DNA of 64,000 nucleotides from Candidatus Poribacteria bacterium (GTDB taxonomy: Bacteria; Poribacteria; WGA-4E; JAJDTR01), in contig CBDCTK010000002.1 of NCBI GenBank assembly GCA_965222225.1, positions 832,001-896,000 of the forward strand, in the 5' to 3' direction. This document shows positions 3,337 to 64,000 of the stretch, piece after piece (position 1 is the stretch's first letter; every line of letters starts with the position of its first letter). The position numbers and the translations under genes are program-made. The notes below the pieces were generated by a model. That model worked only from the letters and a program-made list of their open reading frames with translations, did no database searches and was not told the origin of the DNA.

Positions 3337-3428
3337 GTAGTAGCGATGAACTGAACGGATAGTGAGGGATCATGGAAGCGAATAGCGGCTGCGATGGAGC
3401 TTCCATAGGAATCCCTTCATTGCGCGTC
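3337..3428. repeat. 92-bp dispersed hairpin repeat, copy 1
   Basis: 82/92 identical by manual alignment to 22232..22323; internal stems AGGGAT/ATCCCT and ATGGAAGC/GCTTCCAT. Confidence 0.85.
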
Positions 3429-3431
3429 TTC

Positions 3432-3487
3432 TGTGGGAGCGAGTTTTCCTCGTGACAGACAGTCGCGACCGGGAGATCGCTCCTACA
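3432..3487 (-). repeat. GTAG-type REP doublet (REPIN-like)
   Basis: Reverse complement reads TGTAGGAGCGATCTCCCGGTCGCGA...CTCGCTCCCACA; near copy at 58505..58559. Confidence 0.8.
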
Positions 3488-3663
3488 CAAGGTTTATCGT
3501 AACAATCCTCAAGCATCAAACCGCCAATTTTGCTCCGAAATTAAAATGTGCAAATATGACTGTAAATGACTATAGAATGAGCCGAAATCTTCAACCAGCG
3601 TGCCTGCCGGGAATCTGAGAAGTCATGCGGGATAACCTGTCATCATAGAGTGCCCAATTTACG

Positions 3664-5925: not shown

Positions 5926-6008
5926 GTTGTTGAAGTTGTCGTGCGTTAGCAAGTTGAGTTTTTCCGGAAGTTGGCGTGTCAAATTCCATTAACCCAACAA
6001 ATATCGGC

Positions 6009-6037
6009 TTGACAACTTCATAACATTGTGCTAGAGT
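6009..6037 (+). promoter_or_regulatory. Putative sigma70 promoter
   Basis: TTGACA-17 bp-TAGAGT with TGn extension, upstream of the 6276 ORF. Confidence 0.5.
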
Positions 6038-6275
6038 GATAGCACGTTTCTAACGGCATCTAAGCTAGCATCTGTAGAAGCGTGAACCACAGAGTCGGTT
6101 TAAGAATTCACGGGTTTTCACAACTTCGAGAGTCGCCCACCAGAAATTCCACCGATATAGTGCAGTTTTGCACAATATCATTGTTGATTCCTCGGACCTA
6201 GGCGAAAGCACAAACGCAGTTTCATTTGCGGCCCAGGATTCAACCATACCCTGACGGAAAAAGGAGAACATTTTC

Positions 6276-6710
6276 ATGGAAGCCCTCAAGCGAGTCATAG
6301 GAGTCGTTCTGATCATAATTGCGGCGATAGTCGCAATTCACACGGTAATCGAGCCGGTTTACCACACTTCCACTGAAGATAGTCCCTACAGTTCCATTTG
6401 GGACATCATCAACTGGCTCTCTCTCATTTCGATAATACTGGGGTTGATATTCGGCTACATTCGCATGAGTCGCGCGGACGCGAACTCGAGCGGTCAAGAG
6501 TTCTTGGCGGCAAATACACAATTCTACGGATTCATGTTCGTAGCCATAATTTTCTTGTGGAACTGGTTCGGCATCAGCAAAGTCGGATCGGACTTTACCG
6601 CCGTGGGCAACGACCCCCGAACGATGGTATGGATAATCTTTCATGCCATACTCCCGTTGTTGAATGGTGCGATGGCTGTCCACCTGCTGCGAGCCGGTGC
6701 CAGCGAATAG
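6276..6710 (+). CDS. Hypothetical 4-TM membrane protein
   Basis: AAGGAGA RBS; four hydrophobic segments. Confidence 0.75.
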   Translation: MEALKRVIGVVLIIIAAIVAIHTVIEPVYHTSTEDSPYSSIWDIINWLSLISIILGLIFGYIRMSRADANSSGQEFLAANTQFYGFMFVAIIFLWNWFGISKVGSDFTAVGNDPRTMVWIIFHAILPLLNGAMAVHLLRAGASE

Positions 6711-6993
6711 CCAACAGTATATGTCTTCAAGATCCTAACGGTGTCTCTTCTGCGCTCGCGTTTGCGGGCGTAGAAGCCTTACAAACTGAGATAAAGAAAA
6801 AATGGCATACTTTCACTGTAAACTTTGCTATTACGCCCTGTAAATACAAGGGCGCTCAACAAGACCATGTTTTTTCCATAATTTCAATTCCGCTAAAGGA
6901 GTCACCCAAGAAAATCACAAACGAGAGAAATAGGTGGCAAGTTGAAATAAACTACAACCACAATATGTTCAACAATAGGAGGTTGTTTGAAAT

Positions 6994-7743
6994 ATGAAGT
7001 ATGTTCGGTATGAAGTGAACGGTAGTGTTTCCTACGGAACCCTTTCCGGTGACACGATTTCAGAACTTAGTGGCGATATTTTTGGGGAGTGCGAAGCAAG
7101 CGGCGCGACGGTTGGGCTCTCTGATGTAAAACTGCTCGCACCAACAGTCCCGTCAAAAATCTTGGCAGTGGGGCTAAACTACCGCAGCCATTTGGGAGGT
7201 GAGCCGGAACCCAAGAACCCGGAGATGTTCATCAAAACACCCTCGTGTATCAACAATCCGAACGGCGAAATTGTGCTTCCGGTTGGTGATGATGATGTTC
7301 ACGCCGAGGGTGAACTGGTCGTCGTCATTAAGAATCGCACAAGAAATGTGACGCCGGAGGAAGCGGTTGATAATATTCTGGGCGTCACATGTGGCAACGA
7401 TGTAAGCGCCCGAACTTGGCAACATAACGATCTGCAGTGGTGGCGCGGCAAATCCTGTGACACGTTCGGTCCGATGGGACCAGCCATCGCTACCGACGTT
7501 GATTACGGCAATCTCCAATTAGAGACACGAATCAACGGAAACGCTATCCAATCCCAGACGACCGCTGATCTTATCTTCCCCGTGCCATCCATTGTCAGTT
7601 TTGTCTCGCAGGTGATGACACTCGAACCGGGCGATGCCATATTCACGGGTACACCGGGCACGACAACGGCGTTAGCCGCTGGAGATACGGTTGAAGTGGA
7701 AATCGAAGGGATTGGCATCCTACAAAACACTGTAGTCAGCTAA
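6994..7743 (+). CDS. Fumarylacetoacetate hydrolase family protein
   Basis: KILAVGLNY, EGELVVVI, GNDVSAR, KSCDTFGPMGP, TLEPGDAIFTGTP; AGGAGG RBS. Confidence 0.93.
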   Translation: MKYVRYEVNGSVSYGTLSGDTISELSGDIFGECEASGATVGLSDVKLLAPTVPSKILAVGLNYRSHLGGEPEPKNPEMFIKTPSCINNPNGEIVLPVGDDDVHAEGELVVVIKNRTRNVTPEEAVDNILGVTCGNDVSARTWQHNDLQWWRGKSCDTFGPMGPAIATDVDYGNLQLETRINGNAIQSQTTADLIFPVPSIVSFVSQVMTLEPGDAIFTGTPGTTTALAAGDTVEVEIEGIGILQNTVVS

Positions 7744-15218: not shown

Positions 15219-16175
15219 ATGCAAGCCGTATACATTGATGATATTGAGACCATACGCGTTGGAACAAGGGAGATTCCTAAACCCGCCGCCGATGAAGTTT
15301 TGCTGAATGTCCGATCGGCTGGAATCTGTGGAAGTGACATTCACATACTCAAAGGGGAGTTCGGCGTACTTCCGGTTATCCCCGGTCACGAATTCTGTGG
15401 CGATGTTGTTGAAGTTGGGAAGAAGGTCACCACCCACAGCCCAGGCGACCGTGTGGCAGTCAATCCGTCAGGAATTGGCTACGGAACGCTGGTTGCCGGT
15501 GGATTTGAAGATTACGTTGCAGTTCGCGCTTCACTGGCTCATCCCTTGGGCGATCTCACCTACGATGAAGGTGCGTTGATAGAAACTCTTGGATGTATCG
15601 TTCACGCTATTGACAGCGCAGGCGTTACCTTGGGCGATGAGGTTCTTGTAGCGGGTGCAGGACCAATCGGTTTGTTAATGCTACAAGTGGCAAAACTATC
15701 TGGAGCACTCTCGGTTACCGTCACGGATGTCGTTGAAGAAAAACTCGTCAAAGCCAAGGAACTTGGTGCGGACGAGACCATTGTTGTAGACAAAGACCTT
15801 GAGGGCCAAATCCATGCCACGCATCCCGACGGATTCCATCTGACCATTGACGCCACGGGAAATCCCAAAGCCCAAGAACAACTCCTCGGTTTCACCGCTG
15901 ACCAAGGGATGGTATTACTTTTTGGATTCGCGTCGCCTGGCGCCATCATGGGAGTCGAGCCTTATGATATTTTCCGACGTGAACTAAAAATCATCGGGAC
16001 ATACGCGCTCGGCAATAAATTTGAGAGGTCACTGGCTCTTGCTATAGCGAAGCGCGTAAAGCTAGCGGACATCATCAGCCATCATTTTCCCCTTGCCGAG
16101 TTTCCCAAAGCCATTGAGACCACGCGGGGCCCCGAGCCGTCGCTCAAAATCCTAATGCATCCTAACGCATCGTAG
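15219..16175 (+). CDS. Zinc-binding alcohol/polyol dehydrogenase (MDR family) lacking the structural-Zn loop
   Basis: GICGSD, GHEFCG, GAGPIG; four-Cys loop absent; GGAGAGG RBS. Confidence 0.9.
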   Translation: MQAVYIDDIETIRVGTREIPKPAADEVLLNVRSAGICGSDIHILKGEFGVLPVIPGHEFCGDVVEVGKKVTTHSPGDRVAVNPSGIGYGTLVAGGFEDYVAVRASLAHPLGDLTYDEGALIETLGCIVHAIDSAGVTLGDEVLVAGAGPIGLLMLQVAKLSGALSVTVTDVVEEKLVKAKELGADETIVVDKDLEGQIHATHPDGFHLTIDATGNPKAQEQLLGFTADQGMVLLFGFASPGAIMGVEPYDIFRRELKIIGTYALGNKFERSLALAIAKRVKLADIISHHFPLAEFPKAIETTRGPEPSLKILMHPNAS

Positions 16176-16192
16176 TCTCGTGGAAGGATATA

Positions 16193-16786
16193 GTTGCAAT
16201 CGCAGATATTGCAGTAGAAAATCTGGCGAAGGCGAAAGAATTGGGAGCGCACGAAGTCTTTGATGCATCCCACAATCTCAAGGAACAGCTTTTGGAAGCA
16301 CACCCGAAACGGTTCCATCTCACGATTGATGCAACGAGAAATCCTCGTGCCCAGGAACAAATGCTAGGTTTCACAAGAAGCGGCGGCAGATTCCTGCTCT
16401 TCGGCGTTGCGGCACCTGCCGATACTATGACCGTCGAGCCTTACGACATTTTCTATCGCGAGCTGAAGATTGTCGGGGTACACAGTTTCGGCGACAAGTC
16501 TGGACGGGCTGTCGGAATTGTCAAGTCAAGGAGAGTGAATCTCGCCGAAATTATCAGCCATCATTTCCCACTTGCTCAATTTCGCAAGGTGCTCGATCTG
16601 ACACGCAGCCCGGAACCCTCCCTCAAGATCCTCATGCACCCGGATGGAGATGCACAGATGGTTGGCAGATTCAGCAACGAAGTGTCCGACCCTACCAAAG
16701 CAACCAATAGAAACGAACAGCGCTGGTTTGCCGTTCTTCGCTATGTAGGTAGGCGCAGCAAGGAATGTAAAGAATGGATTCGCTAA
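16193..16786 (+). pseudogene. C-terminal-half fragment of a paralogous MDR dehydrogenase
   Basis: KAKELGA, FHLTIDAT, VEPYDIF, IISHHFPLA and PEPSLKILMHP match the upstream gene; no N-terminal catalytic domain. Confidence 0.75.
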
Positions 16787-21194: not shown

Positions 21195-22188
21195 ACCAAT
21201 GGTGCTAGTTTGAAATTTGGAGGTTAATAAGCATAACATTCCCTTTTGGCTTTGCTTTAACGCGAAAGGTATCAGGGCATGAGACGATTTCCTCGATTCT
21301 ACCGTTAATTTGAGTATCGGTAGCTATCAAATAACGGGAGGAAATCTAGACTCATGACCATAGTAGATTTTATCACAGAACTGTTTTGTTGTGTTGATGA
21401 TAAACTCTCACAGCACGGTAAAAACCATAAGCATAGCCAAGCCAAACTTTATCCGTCTGAAGTGGTTACCATTGCCATGCTCTTTGCGCTCAAGGGTGTG
21501 GGTAATCGAGCCTCCTATCGCTGGATAGCGAACAATTTCAAATCCTTATTTCCGATGTTACCCGAGCGTACCCGATTGTTCCGCTTATTCGACGGGCATC
21601 AACATCTCATTGACGTTTTTATGGCGAATCCTTCGCTTATCGGTGGAATTGACACGTACGGTATTGAATTGATTCACCCGCGCCGAGAAGGGCGCTCTAA
21701 ACGTCAAATCGGACGCAAAGGCATTTCCAACCAACGATGGATTGTAGGTGGAAAACTTTGCTTGCTACACAATCATCTCGGACTGATTGTCAACTGGGAC
21801 TGCGACACTGCCAATGTACATGATGGGAGTGCCTTCCAACATCTCGTTGATGGGGTCAGTGACCAGATGGTTGTTTTTGCCGATGTAAATTTCGCCAAAG
21901 CGGATTGGTTCCCTTCCAACTTGCGTCTGTGCCGACGTGGCGAGTGGAATTCTCGGATGCTGCGAGTGGAATTCTCGGATGCTGGTAGAAACGATTTTGT
22001 CCATGTTGACGCTAGTGTGCCATTTTAAGAAAGTCATGCACCGTCGTTGGAGTTACTTCAAAACGCGAGTCGGCTTTACAATGGCTTTGGTCAATCTCTT
22101 GGTACAGTGGAATGGATTGTCGATTGACGACGATGGCTTTGTGCCTCTGTCAATAGCTCAATTCAGTCTCTAAACTAGCACCAAAGGT
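21195..22188 (+). mobile_element. IS982-family-like insertion sequence
   Basis: Terminal IRs ACCAATGGTGCTAGTTT / ACCTTTGGTGCTAGTTT (15/17); 5-bp direct repeat TAATA at 21190..21194 and 22189..22193; about 1 kb with a single DDE transposase. Confidence 0.85.
21354..22173 (+). pseudogene. DDE transposase frameshifted by a 22-bp tandem duplication
   Basis: ITELFCCVDD, LYPSEVVT, LPERTRLFR, IDTY, GGKL, ANVHD, RMLVET; GCGAGTGGAATTCTCGGATGCT twice at 21940..21983; removing one copy gives a 266-codon frame. Confidence 0.88.
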
Positions 22189-34046: not shown

Positions 34047-36830
34047 TTAGCTTACACGGAGGTGAGTATTTTCAATAGGTTCGACGCCGTTAGGGATCTC
34101 GCCGGTTTCCTTTATATGGTCAATAATTCCGCGCTTATCGGCGTAGACATTTTCTGTTCGCTTCATCCATTTGGGATCTAGTTCGTCCATGTCTACTTCA
34201 ACAGTAAGTGGAGAACGGGCGACACGCACACGATGAATAGAGTTGCCGGCTTTCTTAAGCCCGATAGATTCAAGAAAGCCTTTGAGGTATTGTGCAACGC
34301 CTTTTCGGTTATTCTCTAACTGCTCTCGCATTAGCTGAAGTTCGCGAATCTCTTCTTGAAGAATTTTGATGTGACCGTCCAGAATCTTCTGTTGAGTACG
34401 AATGTTTTTTATGTAAGCAGCACAGTTGTGAATCTTCTCATCGAATGCGAGGTCAAGCGTCTCGAATTGTGAACTATCAAAATCCTCACCTTCAAGTACA
34501 AAGAGACTTTCTTCTATCTCGGCGGGAACGTCGTATAACTTGAATGTATCTGTCATTGTGCGTAGCACGGGAGGATGTGTGCCGTGCCCGTGGTCCATTT
34601 CCAACTTGTAGCGATTCTCTCTCCTCTGGTTTACCAAAATACATGGCAATCCCATAAACTGCATTCCGCCTTTTATCACGGCCTGCCCCTTCTCTGTCGT
34701 TCGGAGACTACCGTGTAGTGAATCTCGGGATAATAGTCCATTTTGAACGAGTTGAAATGCTAAATGTTTCCATTCCTCTTTACTATGCTCTGAACCGATA
34801 CCATAGATTGGGAGTCTATCATGCCTGCTCTTGATAACTTTCTGCGATTTTGAACCACGTAGGACATTAATAATGTGACTCTCGCCGAAAAATTCCCCTG
34901 TCTGAACAGCACATGAGAGAAATTGTTGAGCCCGTGTGGTCAAGTCAACTTTTTCCTTTTGTTCATTCAGGCAATTGTCACACATCCCACAACTTTCACT
35001 CTCGTATTGCTCGCCAAAGTAGGCTAACAGTTCCTTACGTCTGCATTCTGTCGAAGTCGCCCAATCAACAATCATGTTTAATCGCTCCAACCGTCCCTCG
35101 CGCTCGGAGGACGCACCTTGATCGATGAAATGCCTGATGGTGTCCATATCCGCCCAGCTGAACAGTAGGAGACACTCCGCACGATTCCCGTCCCGTCCAG
35201 CGCGACCAATTTCCTGATAGTAAGATTCCGGTTCTTTCGGTAAGCCTACGTGTAGCACGAAGCGCACATCCTCTTTATCTATCCCCATCCCGAAGGCAAC
35301 CGTCTCCACTATCACCCGGATTTCGCCGGAAATAAAAGCGTTCTGATTCTGACTACGAATATCGCTATCCAACCCCGCGTGATACGGGAGTGCCAGAATG
35401 CCCCGTTGCGTTAATTCTTCAGCCAACGATTCAACTTGTTCTCGTGTTTGACAGTAAATTATACCGGATTCCTCCCGATGTTTGTTGAGAAACACGAGAG
35501 ACTGTTCACGCGACTCAACTTTCGGTTCAACCGCGAGGAAAAGATTCTCCCTGTCAAGATTAGCAATAAATTGATGTTCCTCTCGAATCCTGAGCAAGTG
35601 CCTGATGTCTTCTTGAACGCGCGGCGTGGCAGTGGCTGTGAGCGCGAGGCAGACAGCCTGCGGATACCGTTCTCGTACAGAGACTAACTCTCGATATTCT
35701 GGACGAAAATCGTATCCCCACTCTGAAATACAGTGCGCTTCATCAATAGCAAGACATGAGATATTTGATTCGTCTAGCATCAACAGTATTTCGGGGCGCA
35801 TGAGCGTTTCAGGAGCCATATAGAGCAACTTGATTTCACCCCGTTTTACACGCTGCATCGTGTCAAGGTATTCTGGATGACCGAGGGTGCTGTTGAGAAA
35901 AACACCGCTGACATCACGCTGTTGTAACTGCATGACTTGGTCCTGCATTAATGAAATTAGCGGAGAAATGACAACGGTTACACCATCGAAGATGAGCGCA
36001 GGCACTTGGTAACAGAGCGACTTCCCTCCCCCCGTCGGTAGAACAATGAGTAGATCATGCTGCTTGAGGATGTGGTCGATGATTCCCTCTTGTAACGGCC
36101 GGAATTGTACATGCCCGAACACATTTTGGAGAATCTCTAGGGGCGTCCGAAGCAGCATTTGAGCTGAAGAAGATTCCACGTCAATGGGGCATTCAAGTTC
36201 TTCCTGTTTTGCCTCTTCGAGAAACCATCCGGAAAGCTGTGCGTAGCAACGCAATTCTGCGTCTGGTGTGTTTTCCGGTCGCCACCAATGTGCTAGTGAG
36301 ACGCGGAGGAGCGTGCCTGCGGGAATAACTTCAAGTGGTTCTTGAAAACCGACAAAGGTGAGCGTGCACCCACCATTTTCAGTGGGATAACGATACCGCA
36401 CCCTCCTTCCTTCTGTATCGCGGGTGAGCGGCCAGTCCGGTCGCCAAAACGTTGTGCTGTAGGGTGGAATACCGCTCCGCTCAGCGACGTAAAGCGGGCC
36501 TCTCTCGGTGTTTTGAAACAACCCTTCATAAAGTGTGTTTGGCCCCCCGCTTCTCGAAGGCATTAAGAGTTCAATGGCACTTACTAGCTCTCTCACGGTG
36601 AGGAAGTGCTCCCTCTCATAAACAACAATATTTTCGTTATGCGGTGCAATCAGCGAAGTTTCAGGCTCAGACGAAATTACCCAAATATCACCAACGTTAT
36701 ATTCACGATTCGCTCCGTCATGTGGGTCGGCGTCGAACGGAACGAGGCGGACGCTTTCTCCCTGCTCCGTAATCGCGCCAATGCAAGCGCCGCCACCCAT
36801 TCGGGTTTTCGCAACAATCAGAACTTTCAT
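34047..36830 (-). CDS. recQ: RecQ-family helicase fused to an N-terminal dual-OB-like domain and a C-terminal siphovirus Gp157-like domain (no HRDC)
   Basis: LPTGGGKSLCYQ, SPLISLMQDQV, DEAHC, ALTATA, YHAGL, QEIGRAGRDG, Zn-site CRR..CGMCDNC, WH; extra about 200 aa N-terminal and about 170 aa C-terminal. Confidence 0.9.
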   Translation of the reverse strand: MKVLIVAKTRMGGGACIGAITEQGESVRLVPFDADPHDGANREYNVGDIWVISSEPETSLIAPHNENIVVYEREHFLTVRELVSAIELLMPSRSGGPNTLYEGLFQNTERGPLYVAERSGIPPYSTTFWRPDWPLTRDTEGRRVRYRYPTENGGCTLTFVGFQEPLEVIPAGTLLRVSLAHWWRPENTPDAELRCYAQLSGWFLEEAKQEELECPIDVESSSAQMLLRTPLEILQNVFGHVQFRPLQEGIIDHILKQHDLLIVLPTGGGKSLCYQVPALIFDGVTVVISPLISLMQDQVMQLQQRDVSGVFLNSTLGHPEYLDTMQRVKRGEIKLLYMAPETLMRPEILLMLDESNISCLAIDEAHCISEWGYDFRPEYRELVSVRERYPQAVCLALTATATPRVQEDIRHLLRIREEHQFIANLDRENLFLAVEPKVESREQSLVFLNKHREESGIIYCQTREQVESLAEELTQRGILALPYHAGLDSDIRSQNQNAFISGEIRVIVETVAFGMGIDKEDVRFVLHVGLPKEPESYYQEIGRAGRDGNRAECLLLFSWADMDTIRHFIDQGASSEREGRLERLNMIVDWATSTECRRKELLAYFGEQYESESCGMCDNCLNEQKEKVDLTTRAQQFLSCAVQTGEFFGESHIINVLRGSKSQKVIKSRHDRLPIYGIGSEHSKEEWKHLAFQLVQNGLLSRDSLHGSLRTTEKGQAVIKGGMQFMGLPCILVNQRRENRYKLEMDHGHGTHPPVLRTMTDTFKLYDVPAEIEESLFVLEGEDFDSSQFETLDLAFDEKIHNCAAYIKNIRTQQKILDGHIKILQEEIRELQLMREQLENNRKGVAQYLKGFLESIGLKKAGNSIHRVRVARSPLTVEVDMDELDPKWMKRTENVYADKRGIIDHIKETGEIPNGVEPIENTHLRVS

Positions 36831-37315
36831 GGCACAATATGCTCCAATTCCAACTTGAATACTGTTGCTAGTCTGTCTGCTACCAATGAGCGGTGACAGG
36901 CTTCGGGATTCCTCTCAACACAAAAGAGCGCCACAACCTGTGCGTTCGCCTCAAGATTTTTCAGTAGGCTGTGGGGGTCAAACTCTGCAAGACATTCGGT
37001 GTGATAAGCCGCGATAAACGCCTTGCCCAATGCCGTACGCTTACGTTTGACAATTTTCGTCGCTTTGTCTGCTTTTACCTGCTTATCACGGACCGTTTTT
37101 GTTGGCGCGAGATCTTTGCGGTGAATATAGCGAATACCCAACTCTGCCAGCCGATTCTGCAGGCGTTGACTATTGGCAAACGCATAAGTTGACCCGCGCA
37201 ACCCCCGTCGGGAACGAATATCACAGAATGTATCAACGTTCGCATCACGTAACGCCCCGAAGAAACTAGCTTCATCAAACCCGTATACCCCGATGGTGAC
37301 AACTTTGGGTTTCAT
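36827..37315 (-). CDS. DUF488 family protein
   Basis: TIG, CDIR, IRYIH..DLAP, LFCVE...CHR; stop overlaps recQ start (ATGA). Confidence 0.88.
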   Translation of the reverse strand: MKPKVVTIGVYGFDEASFFGALRDANVDTFCDIRSRRGLRGSTYAFANSQRLQNRLAELGIRYIHRKDLAPTKTVRDKQVKADKATKIVKRKRTALGKAFIAAYHTECLAEFDPHSLLKNLEANAQVVALFCVERNPEACHRSLVADRLATVFKLELEHIVP

Positions 37316-37321
37316 GGCTAA

Positions 37322-37879
37322 TCACTGGTACCGCTTACGCGACTGGAACGCATCTCCACCAAACAACTGCATCTGTCCCCCCGTGAGGCGATTGATGATA
37401 TGCATCTGAGACCGTAGCTCATTGTTTTCATCAATATGAGTTATCTGTATGTTCCGCCTTTGCAGTGTCTCTCCGATGAGTTTGCTCCGATGACAGTTCT
37501 CCGGTTTTCCCTCACTGCACATGAGGACAACGCGTTGCTTTTGCGCGACAGCCGTTTGAAGGCGTTTAATTCCGAACTGATAGCGTCCGGTCTTCTTCAC
37601 CCTTTCGTAGTCTACCTTCCCGTTCACATCATAGCACTCTTCATCGTCGGGCTGGCCGCCCAGAGTGTCACCCATGAAAACATACCGAACTCCTTGTCGT
37701 TGCAACTCCGCCTCCAGCGGCTCTCTGGAAAATTCAGGTTTATAGCGCGAATAGGGAGCAGACCGCACGTCAATCAGATACGCAATCTCATGCTCTTGTA
37801 GCACTTCAATGAATTCATCGACCGAACGGCTACCGTAGCCGATGGTATAAATGGTGACCGTTTCTTGGGATTTTTCCAT
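37322..37879 (-). CDS. DUF488 family protein
   Basis: IYTIGYG, LIDVRSAPYSR, YVFMGDTLGG, LMCSE...CHR. Confidence 0.92.
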   Translation of the reverse strand: MEKSQETVTIYTIGYGSRSVDEFIEVLQEHEIAYLIDVRSAPYSRYKPEFSREPLEAELQRQGVRYVFMGDTLGGQPDDEECYDVNGKVDYERVKKTGRYQFGIKRLQTAVAQKQRVVLMCSEGKPENCHRSKLIGETLQRRNIQITHIDENNELRSQMHIINRLTGGQMQLFGGDAFQSRKRYQ

Positions 37880-50429: not shown

Positions 50430-51441
50430 CTACGTGGTATGGAATACGACGCTGCGGATTGCCCAGAAACAACTCATCAACGTTTCTCCGATTGCCAGCC
50501 CCACAAAAAATGGATACCCGGGCACGTTTTGAACACCAACAGCGCTGCCGATTTGAAGTTGTGCCTTATTGATAAAGTAGAAAAACACACAAGAAAAAAG
50601 AAGACCCAAGGGCAGAAGAAGTGCTATTCCAATCATTAGCGAATTAAAGCGAATCGGCAGGTTTCCCAAAGCGTTCCACGGCTTCTGAGTAAAGTATACG
50701 TTGAGGTCATAGTCGGTAACGATTTGTGGTACGCTCGGTAGGACGCCATGAAGCCCATTGATTAAACCGATTGCCACCGGTATCGCGAAACTGATGATTG
50801 ACAGACGCTTTCCAAACATTGCCCCGACCGTGCCGTTATTTCGAAGAGAATTTGGATTATTGGATACCAAAGTTTTTCGTTCTCGACCCACTGTTTTCGA
50901 ATGATCGTGGTCAGGCAAAGAAAGATAACCATTAGGAGAAAGATCGCAATCAACCATGACAAGATTGGAGTCATCCAATGCTCCAGATAGCCGTCTGTGA
51001 AAAAATTCTGATTCCCCGCGTAGAAGTCTTGAACTGTAGTTGAATTAGAAATGATGAGCCAGTTGGGTAGATAGTGAAAGAAAGCGCTCTCCAGTCATTA
51101 TCAGGGCTTGCAAAACGATGCGCGTAAGGCATTTGTCCCATCAAACGCGGCATGTTGTCATGACCAGTGAAAGAGCTACCCACGGCAACCATCGAAAAAA
51201 TTACGAGCATATCCTGTTGACTGAGTTCGGCCGTTGGCACAATTCGCCGAACAACCATGTTGAGCCACGTAATTATCAAAAGGGTAAATAGCACATTAAT
51301 CGACAGTGCAACCGTCATAAGATGTGCGGTATGCCAGAGCATCTCTGCATATGCAAGCCAGTACGTATTAATGACAATCAGCAGGATGCCAATGAATACG
51401 GCGCGTTTCGAAATGGGGTAGGAGGCAAGTTTTTTTGCCAT
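50430..51441 (-). pseudogene. Fragmented, truncated membrane protein (DUF6785-like)
   Basis: Three frame-shifted hydrophobic pieces including RAVFIG and RKQWVENEKLWYPIIQ. Confidence 0.7.
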
Positions 51442-55963: not shown

Positions 55964-58341
55964 CTAACTACCTAATCGACTCCGGTACTGCAACAAGCGC
56001 AACGAGTTTAGAACAACGAGAATCGTACTACCTTCGTGAAGTATGATGGCAATGCCGATTGTTGCTATACCGAAAACTGCTGAGATGACTAGCCCACCAA
56101 TAACCGCCAGCGCGATGTATAAGTTCTGTGAAATGATTCTCCGTGTAGCGCGACCAAGCCCTATTGCAAACGGGAGTTTCGACAGATCGTCAGCCATTAG
56201 TGCAGCGTCGGCTGTTTCAAGAGCCAGATCCGTCCCGGCACCACCCATCGCAATGCCAATCGTGGCATGGGAAAGCGCCGGCGCATCATTAATGCCATCC
56301 CCAACCATTACAATTTTATCATGAGAACTCAAGAGTTTACGAATGCTGGCTACTTTGTCTTCTGGGAGCAGATTCGCTTTATAATCTGTCACGCCTGCCT
56401 TCTGGGCAATATGGGAAGCAACTCGTGGATTATCACCCGTTAGCATAACGGTATGCTTGACCCCTATCTGTTTGAGTTGTGCAACCACGGTCTTCATTTC
56501 TGGACGCATCGTGTCTGCAACTGCAATCACGCCCACGGGCTGTCGACCAACGGCAACCAGCATGATGGTTTTGCCCTGTTCTTCGAGCTTCGCGATTTGT
56601 GCCTGGAGTGACGCTTGTAATTGTACGTGTGCTTCACGATACAATTTCAGATTGCCAACCCAAACAGTCGTACCTGAAACTTCCGCTTTAATTCCTCGTC
56701 CTGTCATTGATTCTACTTCTTCTGCTTCCGGTAACCTGAGACCTTTCCTCGTGGCAATGTCCACAATGGCATGAGCAATCGGGTGGGCAGATCGACTCTC
56801 TACCGCTGCAGCCATTCCCAACCAATAATTAACATCCATTTCGCCAATTGGAATGATGTCCGTGACTACGGGTTTGCCGATGGTAATGGTGCCGGTTTTG
56901 TCGAAAGCAACAGCTTGCACGTCCCCTAAATTTTCAAGGTGAATGCCGCCCTTTATCAGAATGCCGTTCCGAGCCGCTTGGGCGATGCCAGCGAGAACCG
57001 CCGAAGGTGGGCCAAGTGCAAGCGCGCAGGGAGAAGCCGCCACCAATAATACCATGCCCCGTAGGAGTGAATCACTGAATGGAACACCTAACAACAGAAG
57101 AAGCAAAACCATGAGAATATCGCCGATGAAAATTAATGGGACAAAGACCTGCGAAAACCTCTCGGTTATCCGCTGCGTGCTCGACTTCTGGGTTTGTGCT
57201 TCCTCAACCATTGACACCACCCGAGCTAACATGGTGTCGTCTGAAAGACGTGTTACCCGAACTTCCAAACTCCCATCTCCATTGATACTTCCTGCGAATA
57301 CAGGAGAATCTGGTGCTTTATCCACCGGCACAGACTCACCAGTTATGGCGGATTCATTCACGGCGGATCTGCCGGCGATCACGTCACCATCAACAGGAAT
57401 GCGCATTCCAGGTTTCACAATTACCACAACCCCGGTTTTCAGGTCATCTACGGCTCGTTCCGATTCTCCGTCCGTATTTTTCACTATCGCCGTTTTTGGC
57501 GCCAATTCGGCCAAGTTGCCAATCGCCTTACGTGCTTTATCAAGTGCCCGTTCTTCCAATACATGCCCAAATCTGAACAGACACAGTAACAGCGCTCCCT
57601 CGCTAAACTTACCCAAAAAAGCCGCACCAATCGCTCCCACCACCATTAACAGGTCTATATCAAAACGTCCTGCGCATATTGATTTGATAGCGCGGTGAGT
57701 CGTATCAAGGCCTCCGAACACATAAGCAATCAGGTAGAGGAATAGACTTACCGTGCTTACATTGTAAAAAACGCCAAGGGGAAATGGAAACTTAAAGATG
57801 CGTTCTCCGGCCCAACCAATTAACAGGCATAATCCACATAAAAGACTGACAATTAGCTCGCGGTTCTCTGCGTACCAAGAACCTACACCCTCGGCCGGCA
57901 CTTGATAACCGAGTTGCTTAACCAGCTTTTCAATCCGTTCCCTATCGACAAAGCAGGAATCGTATTCGACCCACATGTTTTTGGCTACGAAGCGGACATT
58001 GACCCGTAGCACACCGTTCATCTGTTTTACACTTTGTTGAATAGTTGCGACACAATCAGCACAATGCATTCCCTTAAGTGGGATTAAATCATGACGGTAG
58101 CGTTCGGTCACTTTCATTCCTGCCCGCTCAGCAGCCTGTCTAGCCCGATCTCTGATAACACATCCGGCTGATAGTGTAAACACAATTGGGCGTTGCCACT
58201 TTGTTCCAGATGTGCGTCACTTATACCTGGGCGATCCTCTAGGGAAGATATTAAACGTTTAACGCATCCATCCTTTTCGTCTTTGATGCCGGACAAGAGT
58301 GATTTGATTTCAAGTTTGAGCGTTTTTTCAGTCATTGTCAA
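55964..58341 (-). CDS. Heavy-metal P1B-type ATPase (SPC/HEGST, P1B-4-like); frameshift near 58153 splits off the N-terminal domain
   Basis: GMHCADC, TGES, SPC, DKTGT, GDGINDAP, HEGST; ORF 58114..58341 joins the main ORF if one base is restored. Confidence 0.88.
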
Positions 58342-58504
58342 ACGTTTGGCTTAACGTGAGCCGAATAAGCAATATAGTATGTTTGCCCCGCGCCAAAGTC
58401 AAGAGAATTGCTGATAAGCGCAACCGTAAACAGGGACCGACATGAATGCTGAAAGCTCTGTCAGTCTGCACTTATAGTCATTTATATTCATATTTACACA
58501 GATT

Positions 58505-58559
58505 TGTAGGAGCGATCTCCCGATCGCGATTCCCGTCGCGAGTAACGCTCGCTCCGACA
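58505..58559 (+). repeat. GTAG-type REP doublet (REPIN-like)
   Basis: TGTAGGAGCGATCTCCCGATCGCGA...TCGCGAGTAACGCTCGCTCCGACA; inverted near copy of 3432..3487. Confidence 0.8.
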
Positions 58560-58875
58560 GATTGCGCGCAATAAATTGCGCCACTCTAAACCGAACTGCG
58601 TAAATCCTATATGTATAATTTTTAGTTGTAATGACTTATAGTCAATTACCTGTTTTGTGTCAATATGATTGTGTTCATTGGACTGCTCCGTGTGAAGAGA
58701 ATCCCCGCTAACCGGCAAAAGGTTACAGCTTGGTTGTCGTGTAAGTAACAGCGTGGCTCTCATTTTTGCTTGCAATCGCATCTCGCATTTGCCATAATTA
58801 CGCAACTTTGGCGCAATACAGTTGCAATTATATTGATAACGGATTTATGAAAGGTTTTCTCGCGAAAAAGTAGAA

Positions 58876-59646
58876 ATGTTCACCTACGACTATCATATCC
58901 ACACGAGGCTTTCCCCGTGCGCCGATAAGCATTTTAGCATTGATAAGATCATCCAGATTCAACAGACCCGCGGGTTGGAGGAAATCGGGATTACCGACCA
59001 CGATTTTAGCTACGGCTCGCGAACCAAAAACATTGATCGAGCGCGCAAAGCGATTGATGAATGCGATACGTCAATCTCAGTCCGGTTTGGCGCGGAGTCA
59101 CACATGCTCGAATACCGTGTCCCGTCAATTGATATACGCTTTGCAGCATACTTTGATTATATCTTGATGGCGCCAAATCACTATCATTTTCGCGGGGTGG
59201 CTCGCCCAACCCAACTGCTGGATCCGAAGAAGGTAGCCGTGCACGAGTTGTACATGTTTGAAGCCGCGGTTGCCTGCCCGATAACGGATGTCGTGGCGCA
59301 CCCGTTTGTTCTGTCGCCCGAGGTTTTTGGCTTTTCCAAAGAGGAATTCTCAGCCTTCGGGAGCGAAATGATGGGGCATATCGATCAGAAGCGGTTGATT
59401 AATCAACTCGACATGGCATCACAGCGCGGGATCGGCATTGAGATTAGCCCCAAATTCATCAAATACAATCAGAGACATCTCGTGGAGTTTTATCAGATGT
59501 GTCTAGATCGGGAGGTACTGTTGATGATTGGCAGCGACGCACACAACGCCGAGCAGTTGGAAGAGCTGGCGTTGCTTGGACCCGTGCTTGAGGAGTTGGG
59601 GGTTTCGGAGGAGCACCTGTGGCGACCGAAGGAGTGGCATTGGTAG
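58876..59646 (+). CDS. PHP-domain phosphoesterase
   Basis: DYHIHT, ITDH, GAE, AHP, GSDAH. Confidence 0.9.
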   Translation: MFTYDYHIHTRLSPCADKHFSIDKIIQIQQTRGLEEIGITDHDFSYGSRTKNIDRARKAIDECDTSISVRFGAESHMLEYRVPSIDIRFAAYFDYILMAPNHYHFRGVARPTQLLDPKKVAVHELYMFEAAVACPITDVVAHPFVLSPEVFGFSKEEFSAFGSEMMGHIDQKRLINQLDMASQRGIGIEISPKFIKYNQRHLVEFYQMCLDREVLLMIGSDAHNAEQLEELALLGPVLEELGVSEEHLWRPKEWHW

Positions 59647-59741
59647 GTTGGATGAACTTCAAACAAGTGGTGGTAGGTAGAAATGCGGTGGATGTCTCCA
59701 GTGCAAAAAACCATGTCAGAATTGAATCAATCAATGTCTCG

Positions 59742-61244
59742 CTATATATAGTATTTGAAATTTGGTTTACAATCGGAAACAATAGGATTCGAAATCAAAA
59801 TTTCTCCGACCGCGTCTGAAAAACCTACGGTAACAGGCTGAGAATTCCCAAGGTGGCACGCATTGTAGTTCAGTTTTGTTAAACCATAAATATCTTGGGC
59901 AACTCTTTCTATCAGAGCATCTCCGTGCTGAATATCAATGCGTAATGGCACAGGTGTTTCCCACCCGTCGTAGGTCGCAATTCGAGGTTTGAATCCACTA
60001 CCCCATAGGTATCCTGCCCGATTATTAACTCGCCAGAAGGTGCCTCTCAGAATTGGCATCTTGCCAGTGCGAAATAATCGCGGCCCGTATCGTTCCGGGC
60101 GGACCCTTACCCCAATAAGTTTAGCACTCTTGGGGCAAGCTCTTTGGTAGCCAGAAAACTCGTGATGACCAATGGTGGATCGTGAATGTAAGAAGATCTC
60201 GCGAAGTGGCTTACCACCAAGGTCCTCGTAAGTCTTTAGGACCCCACGCAAGAGGTTATATGCAGCAGTATCATTTAGATGATACTGATTAGTTTCCGAT
60301 GAATACCACGGTCCATATTGTCCAAGGAATACCACACCGTCTCCTGTATTGAGAAACATCTGGGCTGCACAACAGGCAGTTTCCTCTTCGTCTAATGTAT
60401 CATTTCGACGAAAGGCAATGCCGATGTAACAGACACCGTCGCGCGCAGTCACAAGCCTCCAAGGTTTACCGCCACATTTGTAATAAAGCGCAGTGCCAAG
60501 GTTCCACATACGGTCCGATAGCGGAGTGAGCGAGCGTCCCCCGCGCGAGTCATCGTCTTTCAAACACATTGTGGATTCCCGCACAATTTGCAAAGGGATT
60601 TCGTACTGCATGGAAAGTGCTTTCAACTGCCGCCGAAAATCGGGCGCCAATCGATACTGCTGTCGATCGAAATCATCCAAAAACTCAAGTTGCCCTGCCC
60701 TTCTCATTTGTATTGTTTGTGAAATACCAGCTTGACTAATAGGACTTGCCACGTCGGACTCTGGCCGACAATTCCGCCAAACCTCATCTGGGACTACGCA
60801 GATAGCCACGCCAATATTCTCATCAAGTTTGCTCGCCTTTTCCAACTGTTGAAGGTAAAAATTGACGGTTTTAAACGTACGCTCGTATTTATCAGGATGA
60901 CGAGAGGCCTCAATGAGTTGGGCCGCACCAATTGGATAAGACCAGACTGGCTTACTAGGCCAATGCGAGCAGAATGTAGCCTCAAACCCGGGAAATGGAG
61001 GCCAGAGCCGCAGGTTTGCTTTTCGAGCGAAGGTGGCAGGATTGTTCATAATCTCTGACCAAGCTTTGAACTTGGTGATTCCTGGGCCAGTTCCAATAAC
61101 GATGTAGGATAGTGTCCCTGGTCTTGACGGACCATCTGCGTCAAAAGGTCCGAACAGAGCTAGGCCATCACGGGGATCTATAGTCCGTTGGTGGTAGCGG
61201 AATTCCAATTCTGGTTCATCAAACACTATGATTGATTCGGTCAT
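59742..61244 (-). CDS. Short prokaryotic Argonaute (MID-PIWI, SPARTA-like clade)
   Basis: EPELEF, DPRDGLALFGP, FPGFEA, QIVREST, YYKCGGKPW, CCAAQMFL..GDG.VF.G, LTKLNYNAC, C-terminal FKYYI; start set at MTESII. Confidence 0.94.
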   Translation of the reverse strand: MTESIIVFDEPELEFRYHQRTIDPRDGLALFGPFDADGPSRPGTLSYIVIGTGPGITKFKAWSEIMNNPATFARKANLRLWPPFPGFEATFCSHWPSKPVWSYPIGAAQLIEASRHPDKYERTFKTVNFYLQQLEKASKLDENIGVAICVVPDEVWRNCRPESDVASPISQAGISQTIQMRRAGQLEFLDDFDRQQYRLAPDFRRQLKALSMQYEIPLQIVRESTMCLKDDDSRGGRSLTPLSDRMWNLGTALYYKCGGKPWRLVTARDGVCYIGIAFRRNDTLDEEETACCAAQMFLNTGDGVVFLGQYGPWYSSETNQYHLNDTAAYNLLRGVLKTYEDLGGKPLREIFLHSRSTIGHHEFSGYQRACPKSAKLIGVRVRPERYGPRLFRTGKMPILRGTFWRVNNRAGYLWGSGFKPRIATYDGWETPVPLRIDIQHGDALIERVAQDIYGLTKLNYNACHLGNSQPVTVGFSDAVGEILISNPIVSDCKPNFKYYI

Positions 61245-61254
61245 CGTCAATATC

Positions 61255-63057
61255 TTAATCAAAATGCTCATCATCGTAGTTTCTAAGCAGTTCTGAGCGT
61301 TCGTGACTAAGCGCATCAAGAGCCGCTTCGTTAATCCCAATTGGACAATACACACGCATCGGAGTTGAATTTACGATTATTTGCGCGTCTTGCAGTCCGC
61401 CAATGTTTATCTTTTGTTCATCTTTTTCGTCAGCAAGGAACTGAACTACAGCCAATACGCGGTTAAGCCAGTCGTTATTCCACCAGTTCTTGCATAGGTG
61501 TTTTCGTCTTGAATCGATTGTACGTTTATCGTTGAAGGGGTTTCCGTCTTTGTTTGAAAGACGAACTTTTATGCGAATAAGGACCGTGAAATTATTGATA
61601 AGATCTCGGCGGACAAAAAAGGTTGGCGACAGAGAATATAAGTATTCATGGCCGGACTGATGTTTTCTTTTTCCAGTAGCAGTTATATAGGTCTTTGTAC
61701 CATCAGGTCGATTAAAGTTAAGTCGATTGTTCTCCACGAGATTCTCAGGAAAGTAGGGTTGTTCCATTTTAGGACAGTATTGCAGTTTTTTCTGATAACA
61801 CTTCACTATTAGGGCTTTTCGGATAAGCTCCGATACGAGATCAAGGGACCAAATGCTATATATATTCTTAACTGCCGACCACAGTGAACCCCCATTTTCG
61901 ATTATATTGTATTTCTCGAAAACTGATACGGGCGGCCTATGAAAACTCAGAAATGTATGTCGATCGATTTTTCGATAACTCCACTCGCGCTCAAGTTCAT
62001 TAAGATTCTCTCTTGGGATTGGATTCTGCGTTTTGAAGCAATAAATGACCTCTGGTATCTGCTGAACTTGCAAACAGTTAGAAGAAATGGTTTCTTTTTG
62101 ATCGGAGAGGATGTCTTTTTGTAAGAAGGCTTCTGCGGCAACTCGCTGGCCTTCATATAATAATCGTGGACACTCAATAGATCTCAGCTTTTTCAGTAAT
62201 TGATTTAGACCTTCACCCCAATCAAGTTTAAATGGGATGAACATCAATGTTCTCGTTACCTGGTCCAACTGTGGAACGCTTACGCCATCAACATTTAAGG
62301 GGATTAGGAAATCTTCAACACGTTCATTAGCTATGTTGAGTGCGAGTGTTCTTTGACGCATTACTTCTGGATTTTTGAGCGATGCTTGTGAATACAAACC
62401 GAGAAACCGAAAGGTTCGATTCTTAATTGCCTCGTCGACAGCCTTGGGGTAAGTCTCACCCCCTAGCAACTTGAACCGCTCACACCATACAAGGTAGCCC
62501 TCAGCGGTGAGTTTGCGAGTCAGCCAATCGGCAAGTGCTGCATCTTCAGGAACACAGCTAATGAAAATGTGATCTCGCTCTGTTGAAGCGCTGATTCTGT
62601 CTTGAATCGCAAGGAATTCTGGCGGAAAGAGTCCTGGGTGATGTTTCTTGATCTGCGGATAACTCACGTCAAGTAGGATCCGCAGACGTTCAACACCAAA
62701 GAGTTCAAATTGCCAACCGAATTTTTTGTAAATGTACGCTATCGCCTCATCTCGTTGATGCGCTGTCAATTTAGCTGTTGTGACAAAAATCAGCCGGCTA
62801 CACGCGTGGCCATGTTTATACACCTTCTCTGCATCTTCAACGAGTTTCGCTCTCCAATCTTCACGGACGCTATAGGCAAAAATCGTAGTCTCATTAGACT
62901 TATTGATATGAATTGCGTCTCGTCCTTTATCACTAAAACCACCAAGGGGTTCAATGGATTTGTAACCTTCTAGTGACATCAAGTCATGGCAAAGTCGCTC
63001 AAATTCAAAATAATCTGTGATTGCTTCAAGACAATAGATTGTGGGGTCTGCTGCCAT
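61255..63057 (-). CDS. Nuclease-like (Mrr/REase fold)-TIR-APAZ protein, partner of the short pAgo
   Basis: aa 1-135 FERLC...GY...GG.SDKGRD; aa about 160-295 TIR (IFIS, WL..KL...GY.VWC, FLIPL, W..GL..LL); APAZ SN, SRRK..KNWWN..W. Confidence 0.88.
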   Translation of the reverse strand: MAADPTIYCLEAITDYFEFERLCHDLMSLEGYKSIEPLGGFSDKGRDAIHINKSNETTIFAYSVREDWRAKLVEDAEKVYKHGHACSRLIFVTTAKLTAHQRDEAIAYIYKKFGWQFELFGVERLRILLDVSYPQIKKHHPGLFPPEFLAIQDRISASTERDHIFISCVPEDAALADWLTRKLTAEGYLVWCERFKLLGGETYPKAVDEAIKNRTFRFLGLYSQASLKNPEVMRQRTLALNIANERVEDFLIPLNVDGVSVPQLDQVTRTLMFIPFKLDWGEGLNQLLKKLRSIECPRLLYEGQRVAAEAFLQKDILSDQKETISSNCLQVQQIPEVIYCFKTQNPIPRENLNELEREWSYRKIDRHTFLSFHRPPVSVFEKYNIIENGGSLWSAVKNIYSIWSLDLVSELIRKALIVKCYQKKLQYCPKMEQPYFPENLVENNRLNFNRPDGTKTYITATGKRKHQSGHEYLYSLSPTFFVRRDLINNFTVLIRIKVRLSNKDGNPFNDKRTIDSRRKHLCKNWWNNDWLNRVLAVVQFLADEKDEQKINIGGLQDAQIIVNSTPMRVYCPIGINEAALDALSHERSELLRNYDDEHFD

Positions 63058-63190
63058 TATTATAATTCAAAGTCTGTTACGTACTGTTTTACTTATCCGT
63101 GTATCATATGCTGTCCTATTCTCAATAGTAGCTATGAGATTGCCCATGTTTGATATGGTACCCCAATTGTGGTTAATTTGCCAATACGCT

Positions 63191-64000
63191 TTAGCCCGAC
63201 ATCCCTACTAACATTACACGCTCGGCTTCCCTTTTTGCCTCTTCCACGATGGATTGACCTTCCTGTTGCAGTGCTTTTGCGTGCTTGCGGATTTCGGCGA
63301 TATGGTCGGCAATTTCGATCTGCTTCTTTGGGTCAGGCAAAATTATCCTTAATTGTTTAACTACGTTCCTTGTTATGCCGGTAACGGTGCCACCTGTTAT
63401 CTCTCTTTTGATTTGGAATTTGCCAAAACACGAGTTTAGGTAGCTCAGCAGGTAAACCGCGTTCACATTATCCCGTGGTCTCAGTAAGAAGAGATGTTCA
63501 TTTATATTCTGTCCTATATGTTCTTTACTCTGAACAATGCCGATTTTTCCTGTAGTTGCACCATCTTTGACTAAAAGCAAATCATTTAGTTGCGTTGCCG
63601 TTCTCTTGTGCAAACTATGAAACTCATGCGGGATGTATTTCGGCCTATTGACTTCTATCTCACATTGATTATTGATATGTTCTCCACCAAAACTCAATGC
63701 TCCAGATTTTATGTTTGCTACGCCACCTTTCGGACGACTTCCGCTTTCTATCATTTGCAATAAATCCCCAAGTCGCTTTACGCTACTTGTGTGTCTTAAT
63801 TGATTGTGTAGAACGTCGTAGCTATTTTGATAATAGAAAGGATCGACCCGCTTACCCGCTATCTCACCAGCATAGACTACATAGCATTTCTTCGCTTCAA
63901 TCGCTGGCATCTCAATTCCCAATTGTGCCGGAATATACTCATCAATTGAAGCCAAAAGCGAGTCTGCTTCCTGTTCTTTTTGCCGCTTCTGTGCATAGGC
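63191..64000 (-). CDS. Restriction-modification specificity (HsdS/TRD-type) protein, 5' end beyond window
   Basis: RVDP.YY, SGSRPKGG, DLLLVKDGATTGK, NEH, IILP...Q..IA coiled coil; frame open to window edge. Confidence 0.8.
   Translation of the reverse strand, partial: AYAQKRQKEQEADSLLASIDEYIPAQLGIEMPAIEAKKCYVVYAGEIAGKRVDPFYYQNSYDVLHNQLRHTSSVKRLGDLLQMIESGSRPKGGVANIKSGALSFGGEHINNQCEIEVNRPKYIPHEFHSLHKRTATQLNDLLLVKDGATTGKIGIVQSKEHIGQNINEHLFLLRPRDNVNAVYLLSYLNSCFGKFQIKREITGGTVTGITRNVVKQLRIILPDPKKQIEIADHIAEIRKHAKALQQEGQSIVEEAKREAERVMLVGMSG

Follow-up and report, generated by a model that had tools for sequence, protein, structure and literature searches.

A stretch of 64,000 nucleotides from a Candidatus Poribacteria bacterium (contig CBDCTK010000002.1, positions 832,001 to 896,000; hereafter the window) carries two open reading frames (ORFs) in head-to-tail arrangement, both on the minus strand: a 600-residue partner protein (P0001) followed by a 500-residue short prokaryotic Argonaute (pAgo; P0002). 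Judged by sequence and fold comparisons, they constitute a two-gene short-Argonaute defense system derived from SPARTA, whose partner joins an N-terminal Mrr-like domain to a TIR domain and an APAZ region. It appears nearly certain that this is a functional short-pAgo defense pair of the Mrr-TIR-APAZ type. In the partner, the catalytic glutamate of SPARTA TIR domains is replaced, and this residue is absent from the whole clade; the system therefore cannot be assumed to deplete NAD+ and probably acts differently from its NAD+-destroying SPARTA relatives. We propose that an NADase-dead TIR domain serves as an assembly scaffold for the Mrr-like head, which would be the effector, and we give this chain as a whole a probability of about 0.5.

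The family assignment, with scores well above chance, was agreed upon by Pfam, by PADLOC and by searches of the PDB with sequence and with fold, as had been proposed in an earlier note, made by a model from the sequence, which described a SPARTA-related short pAgo with a nuclease-like/TIR/APAZ partner. Pfam recognized Mrr_cat at residues 16-105 of the partner (E = 7.7e-7, 29.7 bits, the cut-off being 21) and TIR_2 at residues 164-288 (E = 6.8e-15); the Pfam scan of the pAgo and the NCBIfam scan of both proteins returned no match. PADLOC, a comparison suggested in the same note, holds a model of exactly this architecture, Aga_REase-TIR-PNTD1-PNTD2 (PDLC02416), which covers residues 8-587 of the 600 (E = 2.7e-83), and its pAgo_I model matches the Argonaute (E = 1.8e-170). 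By sequence, the partner retrieved eight distinct SPARTA TIR-APAZ proteins from the PDB, aligned from residue ~160 onwards (E = 4.5e-25 to 3.8e-21), and a profile of its clade (27 partner proteins, from the window and 26 loci) carried the match to SPARTA TIR-APAZ through residue ~585 (E = 2.5e-44). Similarly, the pAgo aligns with MapAgo over its full length (8fex_B, residues 4-500, E = 5.7e-95) and with the pAgo of SPARHA over residues 189-500 only (9om4_B, E = 4e-48). The full-length AlphaFold2 (AF2) model of the partner reached a mean predicted local distance difference test score (pLDDT) of 84.8 and a predicted TM-score (pTM) of 0.60; its best fold matches were SPARTA TIR-APAZ chains (8i88_C, E = 6.4e-27), with the APAZ regions of SPARHA (9om4_A, E = 1.6e-11) and SPARDA (9qcc_A, E = 2.6e-10) far behind.

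Residues R204, K208 and Q219 of the pAgo correspond to H, K and Q in the MapAgo alignment and, together with K260, are invariant in the 28/28 pAgos of the clade, a pattern which we take to be that of the MID pocket residues binding the guide 5′ end. At its C-terminus the partner has an acidic tail, seven of the last 20 residues being Asp or Glu; in SPARTA, according to the portion of the work available (PMC10899771), such a C-terminal tail restrains activation.

Short pAgo systems are sorted by their effector, which is an NADase in SPARTA and SPARSA and a nuclease in SPARDA, SPARHA and SPARMA, and they are under development as programmable nucleic-acid detection tools. The Mrr-TIR-APAZ architecture is already known, having both a PADLOC model and a name in print: it is a subclade of S2A named in the available text of Koopal 2022 (PMC9097488), and the accessible part of the SPARDA preprint likewise only names Mrr-TIR-APAZ and Mrr-TIR. 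Its usual placement within SPARTA carries the implication of NAD+ depletion. A literature search met these terms in the two papers only and found no mechanistic study of Mrr-TIR-APAZ, the newer work being devoted to SPARTA, SPARSA, SPARDA, SPARHA and SiAgo, which fits the statement of the earlier note that the architecture had been noted bioinformatically and left uncharacterized. The supplement of Koopal 2022 aside, no report in print was found of either feature described below, the S-x-R/K71/D75 site or the loss of the TIR glutamate from each of the two lineages with an Mrr domain.

The N-terminal Mrr-like domain

The fold of the N-terminal domain was examined on an AF2 model of residues 1-160, built from 26 sequences after one locus (L011), a near copy of another (L009), had been left out. 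The model (pLDDT 87.3, pTM 0.82) shows, in order, a helix (16-29), two strands (48-51 and 57-63), a helix (68-81) and a further strand (88-93). The best Foldseek match in the PDB, and the one match at E ≤ 1e-3, was Avs4 (8dgf, query TM-score (TMq) 0.54-0.57; 8dgf_A, E = 8.6e-4, probability 1.0; 8dgf_B, TMq 0.57, root-mean-square deviation 3.9, 22% identity). It was followed by MspJI, FokI, EcoT38I, AspBHI, Can2 and Card1, interleaved with RPB5 chains. ESM Atlas features gave a score of 0.94 for the Mrr_cat cluster. Since the N-domain profile, when searched against PDB sequences, returned a designed helical protein only (E = 0.75) and no nuclease, the fold is shown by structure prediction. The Mrr_cat match, the AF2 model and Foldseek, with Avs4 at its head, thus bear out the assignment of this domain to the Mrr/restriction-endonuclease type, which the earlier note had made from motifs that are indeed present (FEFERL at 17-22, SDKGRD at 42-47 and FAYSVRED at 60-67). 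A prediction of two copies in complex scored 0.00 and speaks neither for nor against dimerization.

No other part of the partner is as well conserved as the N-terminal domain, which in this respect equals the pAgo: among the 27 clade partners, mean pairwise identity is 0.61 in this domain, 0.46 in the TIR domain and 0.41 in the APAZ region, against 0.63 for the pAgo. Two acidic residues expected in PD-(D/E)xK nucleases are in place and invariant: E20 on the first helix, and D47, which opens the second core strand at the position of the 'PD' aspartate. The caveat in the earlier note that no (D/E/Q)xK follows D47 was right; S63-V64-R65 stands at that place, with S63 and V64 found in 27/27 members and R65 in 26/27. 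In the helix that comes next, K71 and D75 are both present in 27/27 and E74 in 25/27, and K78 is near-invariant. All seven alphaproteobacterial homologues keep the textbook FE...D.G.DG...LQAK. The variant domain of the window clade also occurs, at ~28% identity, in two proteins of ~370 residues from haloarchaeal plasmids (L046, 3001-4116; L047, 2977-4107), with the pattern D.GRDA ... [YF][ST] ... W..K[LI]..DA.K. These proteins retain D43, G45, R46, D47, W68, K71 and D75, not R65; unlike in the partner, the C-terminal half to which the domain is fused has no annotation. A SIR2-family gene lies next to L047. The variant domain is therefore not confined to Argonaute systems.

Active-site migration to the second core helix is documented in the available part of a survey of this fold, for a Glu in Cfr10I and a Lys in Pa4535 (Steczkiewicz et al., 2012; PMC3424549). 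Because K71 and D75 are conserved on that same helix, we hypothesize a candidate non-canonical nuclease site made of D47, E20, K71 and D75, with S63-x-R65 in place of Q-x-K. We lean slightly towards the N-terminal head being an active nuclease.

Alternatively, this domain could be a nuclease-fold module without catalysis that serves in DNA binding, sensing or assembly, in which case the system might have no enzyme of its own, or an unrecognized one, and might act through target sequestration, recruitment of a host nuclease or an unknown function of the TIR domain. The change from Q-x-K to S-V-R in 26-27/27 members speaks for this reading, as does the presence of chains of RPB5, an RNA polymerase subunit, among the fold matches. 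However, the invariant acids E20, D43, D47 and D75, together with K71, are typical of a metal-dependent active site and not of a binding surface, and a conservation equal to that of the pAgo also speaks against a non-catalytic module. No conserved third gene that could supply the effector was found in 33 loci, and the sister group keeps the textbook E...D...QxK, which argues that the Mrr module serves as a nuclease. We therefore consider a non-catalytic head unlikely.

The TIR domain and its glutamate column

In SPARTA, substitution of Glu77 abolishes NADase activity in both CrtSPARTA and MapSPARTA, E77A alone being enough according to the available sections of the two studies (Koopal 2022, PMC9097488; PMC10474274). 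The earlier note held that the pAgo and the TIR-APAZ part of the window system align motif by motif with SPARTA; this fails at Glu77, whose position is occupied by Gln235 in the window protein and by residues other than Glu throughout the clade. Gln235 stands opposite the E of the SPARTA 'LKE' motif in phmmer alignments with 8qlo, 8j8h and 8ifk and opposite Glu77 in alignments of the 27-member profile with 8qlo, 8fex and 8u7b, all of them gap-free from residue 161 to ~247, and the two positions were again aligned by MAFFT in a set of 41 proteins. The solved SPARTA chains shown in these alignments have Glu in this column.

The relatives compared here are 32 loci from GTDB species representatives and 34 records of PLSDB plasmids, and all counts refer to these two sets only. 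Within the window clade (n = 27, all with the Mrr-like domain), the column holds Gln in 21, Arg in five and Ser in one; two damaged Mrr-bearing copies have Ser (L012) and Gln (L033). The seven alphaproteobacterial Mrr-TIR-APAZ proteins have Asp (five) or Leu (two). Hence Glu is absent from 34/34 intact Mrr-bearing partners. It is kept in 7/7 Mrr-less relatives, namely six of six alphaproteobacterial TIR-APAZ proteins and a protein from the same pAgo clade as the window (L028, 'KKERT'). Collectively, these alignments make it likely that the TIR domain is NADase-dead.

A quick IQ-TREE analysis of the TIR-APAZ portion alone (41 rows) placed the two Mrr-bearing groups apart, each next to Mrr-less, Glu-bearing relatives. 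The window clade groups with L028 (Shimodaira-Hasegawa approximate likelihood-ratio support, SH-aLRT, 100), which is sister to the 27 (92); the alphaproteobacterial Mrr-bearing proteins are monophyletic (100) and are grouped with the alphaproteobacterial TIR-only proteins (100). A single origin of all Mrr-bearing partners was rejected: forcing the 34 rows together, a group defined after the tree had been seen, costs 98.9 log-likelihood units (approximately unbiased (AU) test, p = 2.4e-5). The link between Mrr fusion and loss of the TIR glutamate is suggestive only. The MyD88 TIR domain, which is scaffold-only, was among the PDB matches of the clade profile.

A different reading is that of a dual-effector SPARTA, in which the TIR domain would still be an NADase by means of a neighboring acid, E231 in the window clade or the Asp in Alphaproteobacteria, and the Mrr-like domain would add DNA cleavage, so that recognition of the target would bring about NAD+ depletion as well as DNA damage. 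The TIR domain has indeed retained its fold and most of its sequence, as seen in the TIR_2 match and the mean identity of the domain, and residue 231, on the same helix (230-246) as Q235 and one turn before it, is acidic in 26/27 members. Yet this residue is Glu in 18, Asp in eight and Asn in one, which is atypical of an essential catalytic residue, and E77A by itself abolishes the NADase activity of SPARTA. The distribution of Glu, 0/34 with Mrr against 7/7 without it, also runs counter to a retained NADase, and we regard a dual effector as distinctly improbable.

Distribution, operon and gene neighborhood

Scanning the GTDB species representatives with the window pAgo gave the 32 loci, at pAgo identities of 30-76%. 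The closest relatives are Candidatus Poribacteria metagenome-assembled genomes (MAGs), and the other loci belong to Cyanobacteria, Chloroflexota, Planctomycetota, Acidobacteriota, Nitrospirales, Armatimonadia and one Patescibacteria-titled record. In 26/32 loci, a full-length Mrr-TIR-APAZ ORF (577-630 residues) ends between -8 and +70 nucleotides from the pAgo start. The six loci without an intact pair are of different kinds. In L012, the partner (4110-5964) is frameshifted and spread over three frames, breaks which may be sequencing errors because the assembly is nanopore-only; in L033, a Pyrinomonadaceae MAG, it contains many in-frame stops (4161-5969). In L014, a Poribacteria MAG, it is reduced to its last ~28 codons, with a transposase-like ORF in its place (3403-4521, plus strand; IS605 OrfB/TnpB-type as judged by eye) and an orphaned pAgo at 6020-7498. 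L028, from an Armatimonadia MAG, encodes a TIR-APAZ protein of 451 residues without Mrr (4633-5988, plus strand) ahead of a pAgo with 51% identity (5992-7494, plus strand). In L034 the contig is too short, and L035 holds a different, DUF4365-like system whose pAgo is 30% identical.

These damaged copies (L012, L014 and L033) could be read as a sign that the window pair is itself a remnant, decaying or silent, that no longer has a function, which is very improbable given that both window genes are intact, that the intact pair recurs in the 26 loci across Poribacteria, Cyanobacteria, Chloroflexota, Planctomycetota, Acidobacteriota and Nitrospirales, and that all domains contain invariant residues.

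Among plasmids, a tblastn search of PLSDB returned the 34 records. In seven of these, from rhizobia, Salipiger, Sagittula and Roseibium, the match (22-23% identity) extends over the three domains, and a pAgo comes next in every case. On four rhizobial plasmid loci (L001, L036, L037 and L039), the neighbors of the Mrr-TIR-APAZ/pAgo pairs include further genes of defense type, namely a 'restriction endonuclease' ORF, VapBC and a SIR2-family protein of large size.

The coordinates of the operon and of its features are given in the table. The two-gene operon with a 10-bp gap and a three-part partner described in the earlier note was recovered from the ORFs and the sequence, with the same coordinates. 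A longer pAgo ORF starting with GTG and reaching 61355, which overlaps the partner gene, was rejected in favor of the ATG, because the pAgos of relatives align from residue 1-5 of the 500-residue form. Scans of positions 58300-64000 gave 12 promoter-like sites, against 9.3 ± 2.4 in shuffled sequence, and six terminator-like sites, against 4.9 ± 2.7; neither count is above chance, and the operon boundaries therefore rest on gene spacing only.

Features of the operon and of its flanks (positions in the window; aa, amino acids)
Feature	Residues	Positions	Strand	Basis or remark
Partner gene P0001, Mrr-like/TIR/APAZ, 600 aa		61255..63057, including stop	-	ATG start
Short pAgo gene P0002, MID-PIWI, 500 aa		59742..61244, including stop	-	ATG start
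10-nt spacer between the genes, gatattgacg		61245..61254	-	Sequence read; pAgo ATG after the TAA of the partner
Mrr-like PD-(D/E)xK-fold domain	1-145	62623..63057	-	Pfam Mrr_cat, AF2, Foldseek
E20 codon, first helix	20	62998..63000	-	27/27; invariant also against alphaproteobacterial and haloarchaeal relatives
D43-K44-G45-R46-D47	43-47	62917..62931	-	D43, G45, R46 and D47 27/27; K44 25/27
S63-V64-R65, end of third core strand, Q-x-K site of Mrr nucleases	63-65	62863..62871	-	
K71-L72-x-E74-D75, helix after third strand, candidate relocated site	71-75	62833..62847	-	
TIR domain	161-295	62173..62577	-	Pfam TIR_2; gap-free alignment to SPARTA TIR
Gln235 codon, CAA, at the position of SPARTA Glu77	235	62353..62355	-	Helix 230-246 of the model
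APAZ region, acidic tail at its end	296-600	61258..62172	-	Profile and fold matches to SPARTA
Upstream intergenic region		63058..63190	-	One promoter-like site (63184..63155), candidate only
Partial type I restriction S-subunit gene, adjoining the operon upstream		63191-64000	-	Methylase_S, E = 1.8e-6; cut short by the end of the window
PHP-domain gene downstream of the pAgo		58876-59646		Followed by metal transporters and metabolic genes

When the ORFs flanking the pAgo were clustered over 33 loci, the window included, the pAgo was found in 33 and the partner in 30, with no conserved third gene. The next real cluster, an HsdS-like ORF, occurs in 7/33 loci, which besides the window are Poribacteria MAGs or one other MAG, and this recurrence beside the operon suggests a small defense island. 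A further flanking cluster, present at nine loci, proved to be an antisense ORF inside the partner gene and so is no third gene.

Elsewhere in the window, a Dual-OB (DuOB) domain is joined in a 927-residue protein (34050-37879, minus strand) to a RecQ-like helicase, which has Zn-binding and RQC domains, and to a Siphovirus Gp157-like domain at the C-terminus. Two DUF488 genes lie directly upstream of this protein, which looks like another nucleic-acid surveillance or defense module. DUF6785 is split over two overlapping ORFs (50433-51441, minus strand; profile positions 2-117 and 196-323 of 498), possibly a frameshift or a truncated gene. A 181-residue ORF that matches ADH_zinc_N only, a partial duplicate or fragment, comes after a zinc-type alcohol dehydrogenase (15219-16783, plus strand). 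The only mobile-element signal seen in the window is a weak DDE transposase match (E = 2.5e-6) in a 224-residue ORF (21354-22028, plus strand), ~37 kb from the pAgo operon.

Proposed mechanism and comparison with known systems

By homology with the solved SPARTA complexes, the pAgo and the APAZ region of the partner would form a heterodimer. As in SPARTA, this heterodimer would load a small guide (RNA in SPARTA), recognize complementary invader DNA and then oligomerize. Considering the missing glutamate and its link with Mrr fusion, the TIR domain would not deplete NAD+ and would have been retained as an oligomerization scaffold. TIR-driven assembly would thereby cluster the Mrr-like domains, which would cut DNA, as suggested by their fold, their conservation and the analogy with Avs4, SPARDA and SPARHA. 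The outcome would be plasmid or phage interference, or abortive infection. This mechanism is reminiscent of Avs proteins, where Mrr and Cap4 domains form active sites through tetramerization, as described in the accessible part of a preprint (bioRxiv 10.64898/2026.08.25.746987), and of SPARDA and SPARHA, whose nucleases are switched on by pAgo-driven assembly according to the portions available of the reports on them.

Several points weigh against the scaffold-and-effector chain. Identity of the partner to solved SPARTA TIR-APAZ proteins is ~20%. The canonical Q/E-x-K of Mrr nucleases is replaced by S63-V64-R65, and to our knowledge no PD-(D/E)xK enzyme whose Lys position is taken by Arg has been proven active. 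In the TIR domain, E231 is a possible substitute acidic residue, Asp stands at the Glu position in 5/7 alphaproteobacterial Mrr-TIR-APAZ proteins, and the domain is still constrained (0.46 identity) and could have another activity. Lastly, the group submitted to the AU test was chosen with the tree in hand, and the association between presence of Mrr and absence of Glu consists of two independent contrasts, both in the same direction (sign test p = 0.5), significance being out of reach because there are two pairs only.

A broader and more tentative reading is that SPARTA-type systems have at least twice swapped NAD+ depletion for nucleic-acid cleavage, on each occasion by gaining an Mrr domain ahead of the TIR and losing the TIR glutamate, so that the TIR would be left as an enzymatically dead oligomerization scaffold within an Argonaute system, and that in the window clade the Mrr site was rewired as well, its Lys and its second acid having left the third strand (S-x-R at present) for the K71/D75 helix; we hold these two proposals, as one, to be possible and somewhat doubtful. 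If true, the rewired K71/D75 site would represent a form of PD-(D/E)xK that has yet to be described among Mrr-type enzymes. If the dead TIR domain only assembles the Mrr nuclease, the Mrr-TIR-APAZ systems would be a natural intermediate of effector exchange on one Argonaute chassis and a bacterial case of a scaffold-only TIR domain. They would also provide a new guide-programmed nuclease, the activation of which rides on the well-understood tetramer geometry of SPARTA.

Among known systems, SPARTA (S2A; MapSPARTA, CrtSPARTA and BabSPARTA) shares with the window pair the two-gene operon with the partner upstream, a pAgo of MID-PIWI only, the order TIR then APAZ and the acidic C-terminal tail of the partner. 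The window partner differs by an extra 145-residue Mrr-like domain and a helical linker at its N-terminus, and by Gln235 at the Glu77 position; an NADase output is doubtful because this position is never Glu in the window clade.

The alphaproteobacterial Mrr-TIR-APAZ systems, found on rhizobial and roseobacter plasmids such as pNGR234a, have the same three-domain partner followed by a pAgo, the same linker motif after the Mrr domain and the same absence of the TIR glutamate (0/7). In contrast, identity to the window proteins is 23% for the partner and 35% for the pAgo, the canonical Mrr site E...D.G.DG...LQAK is kept there, and on the TIR-APAZ tree they stand with alphaproteobacterial TIR-only proteins and not with the window clade.

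SPARDA, SPARHA and SPARMA (S2B; DREN-, HNH- and Mrr-like-APAZ) have a related APAZ fold and, as far as the available parts of their descriptions go, likely the same principle, in which target recognition leads to assembly and assembly to collateral nuclease activity. Their effector is fused directly to APAZ, whereas the TIR domain lies in between in the window partner, and their pAgo and APAZ belong to another clade, those of the window being of SPARTA type. Finally, although Avs4 relies on a STAND ATPase sensor and its likeness to the N-domain is by fold only, its N-terminal Mrr nuclease domain (PDB 8dgf) is the best structural match of the N-domain and, according to the accessible portion of the same preprint (bioRxiv 10.64898/2026.08.25.746987), is an effector nuclease whose active sites are formed through oligomerization.

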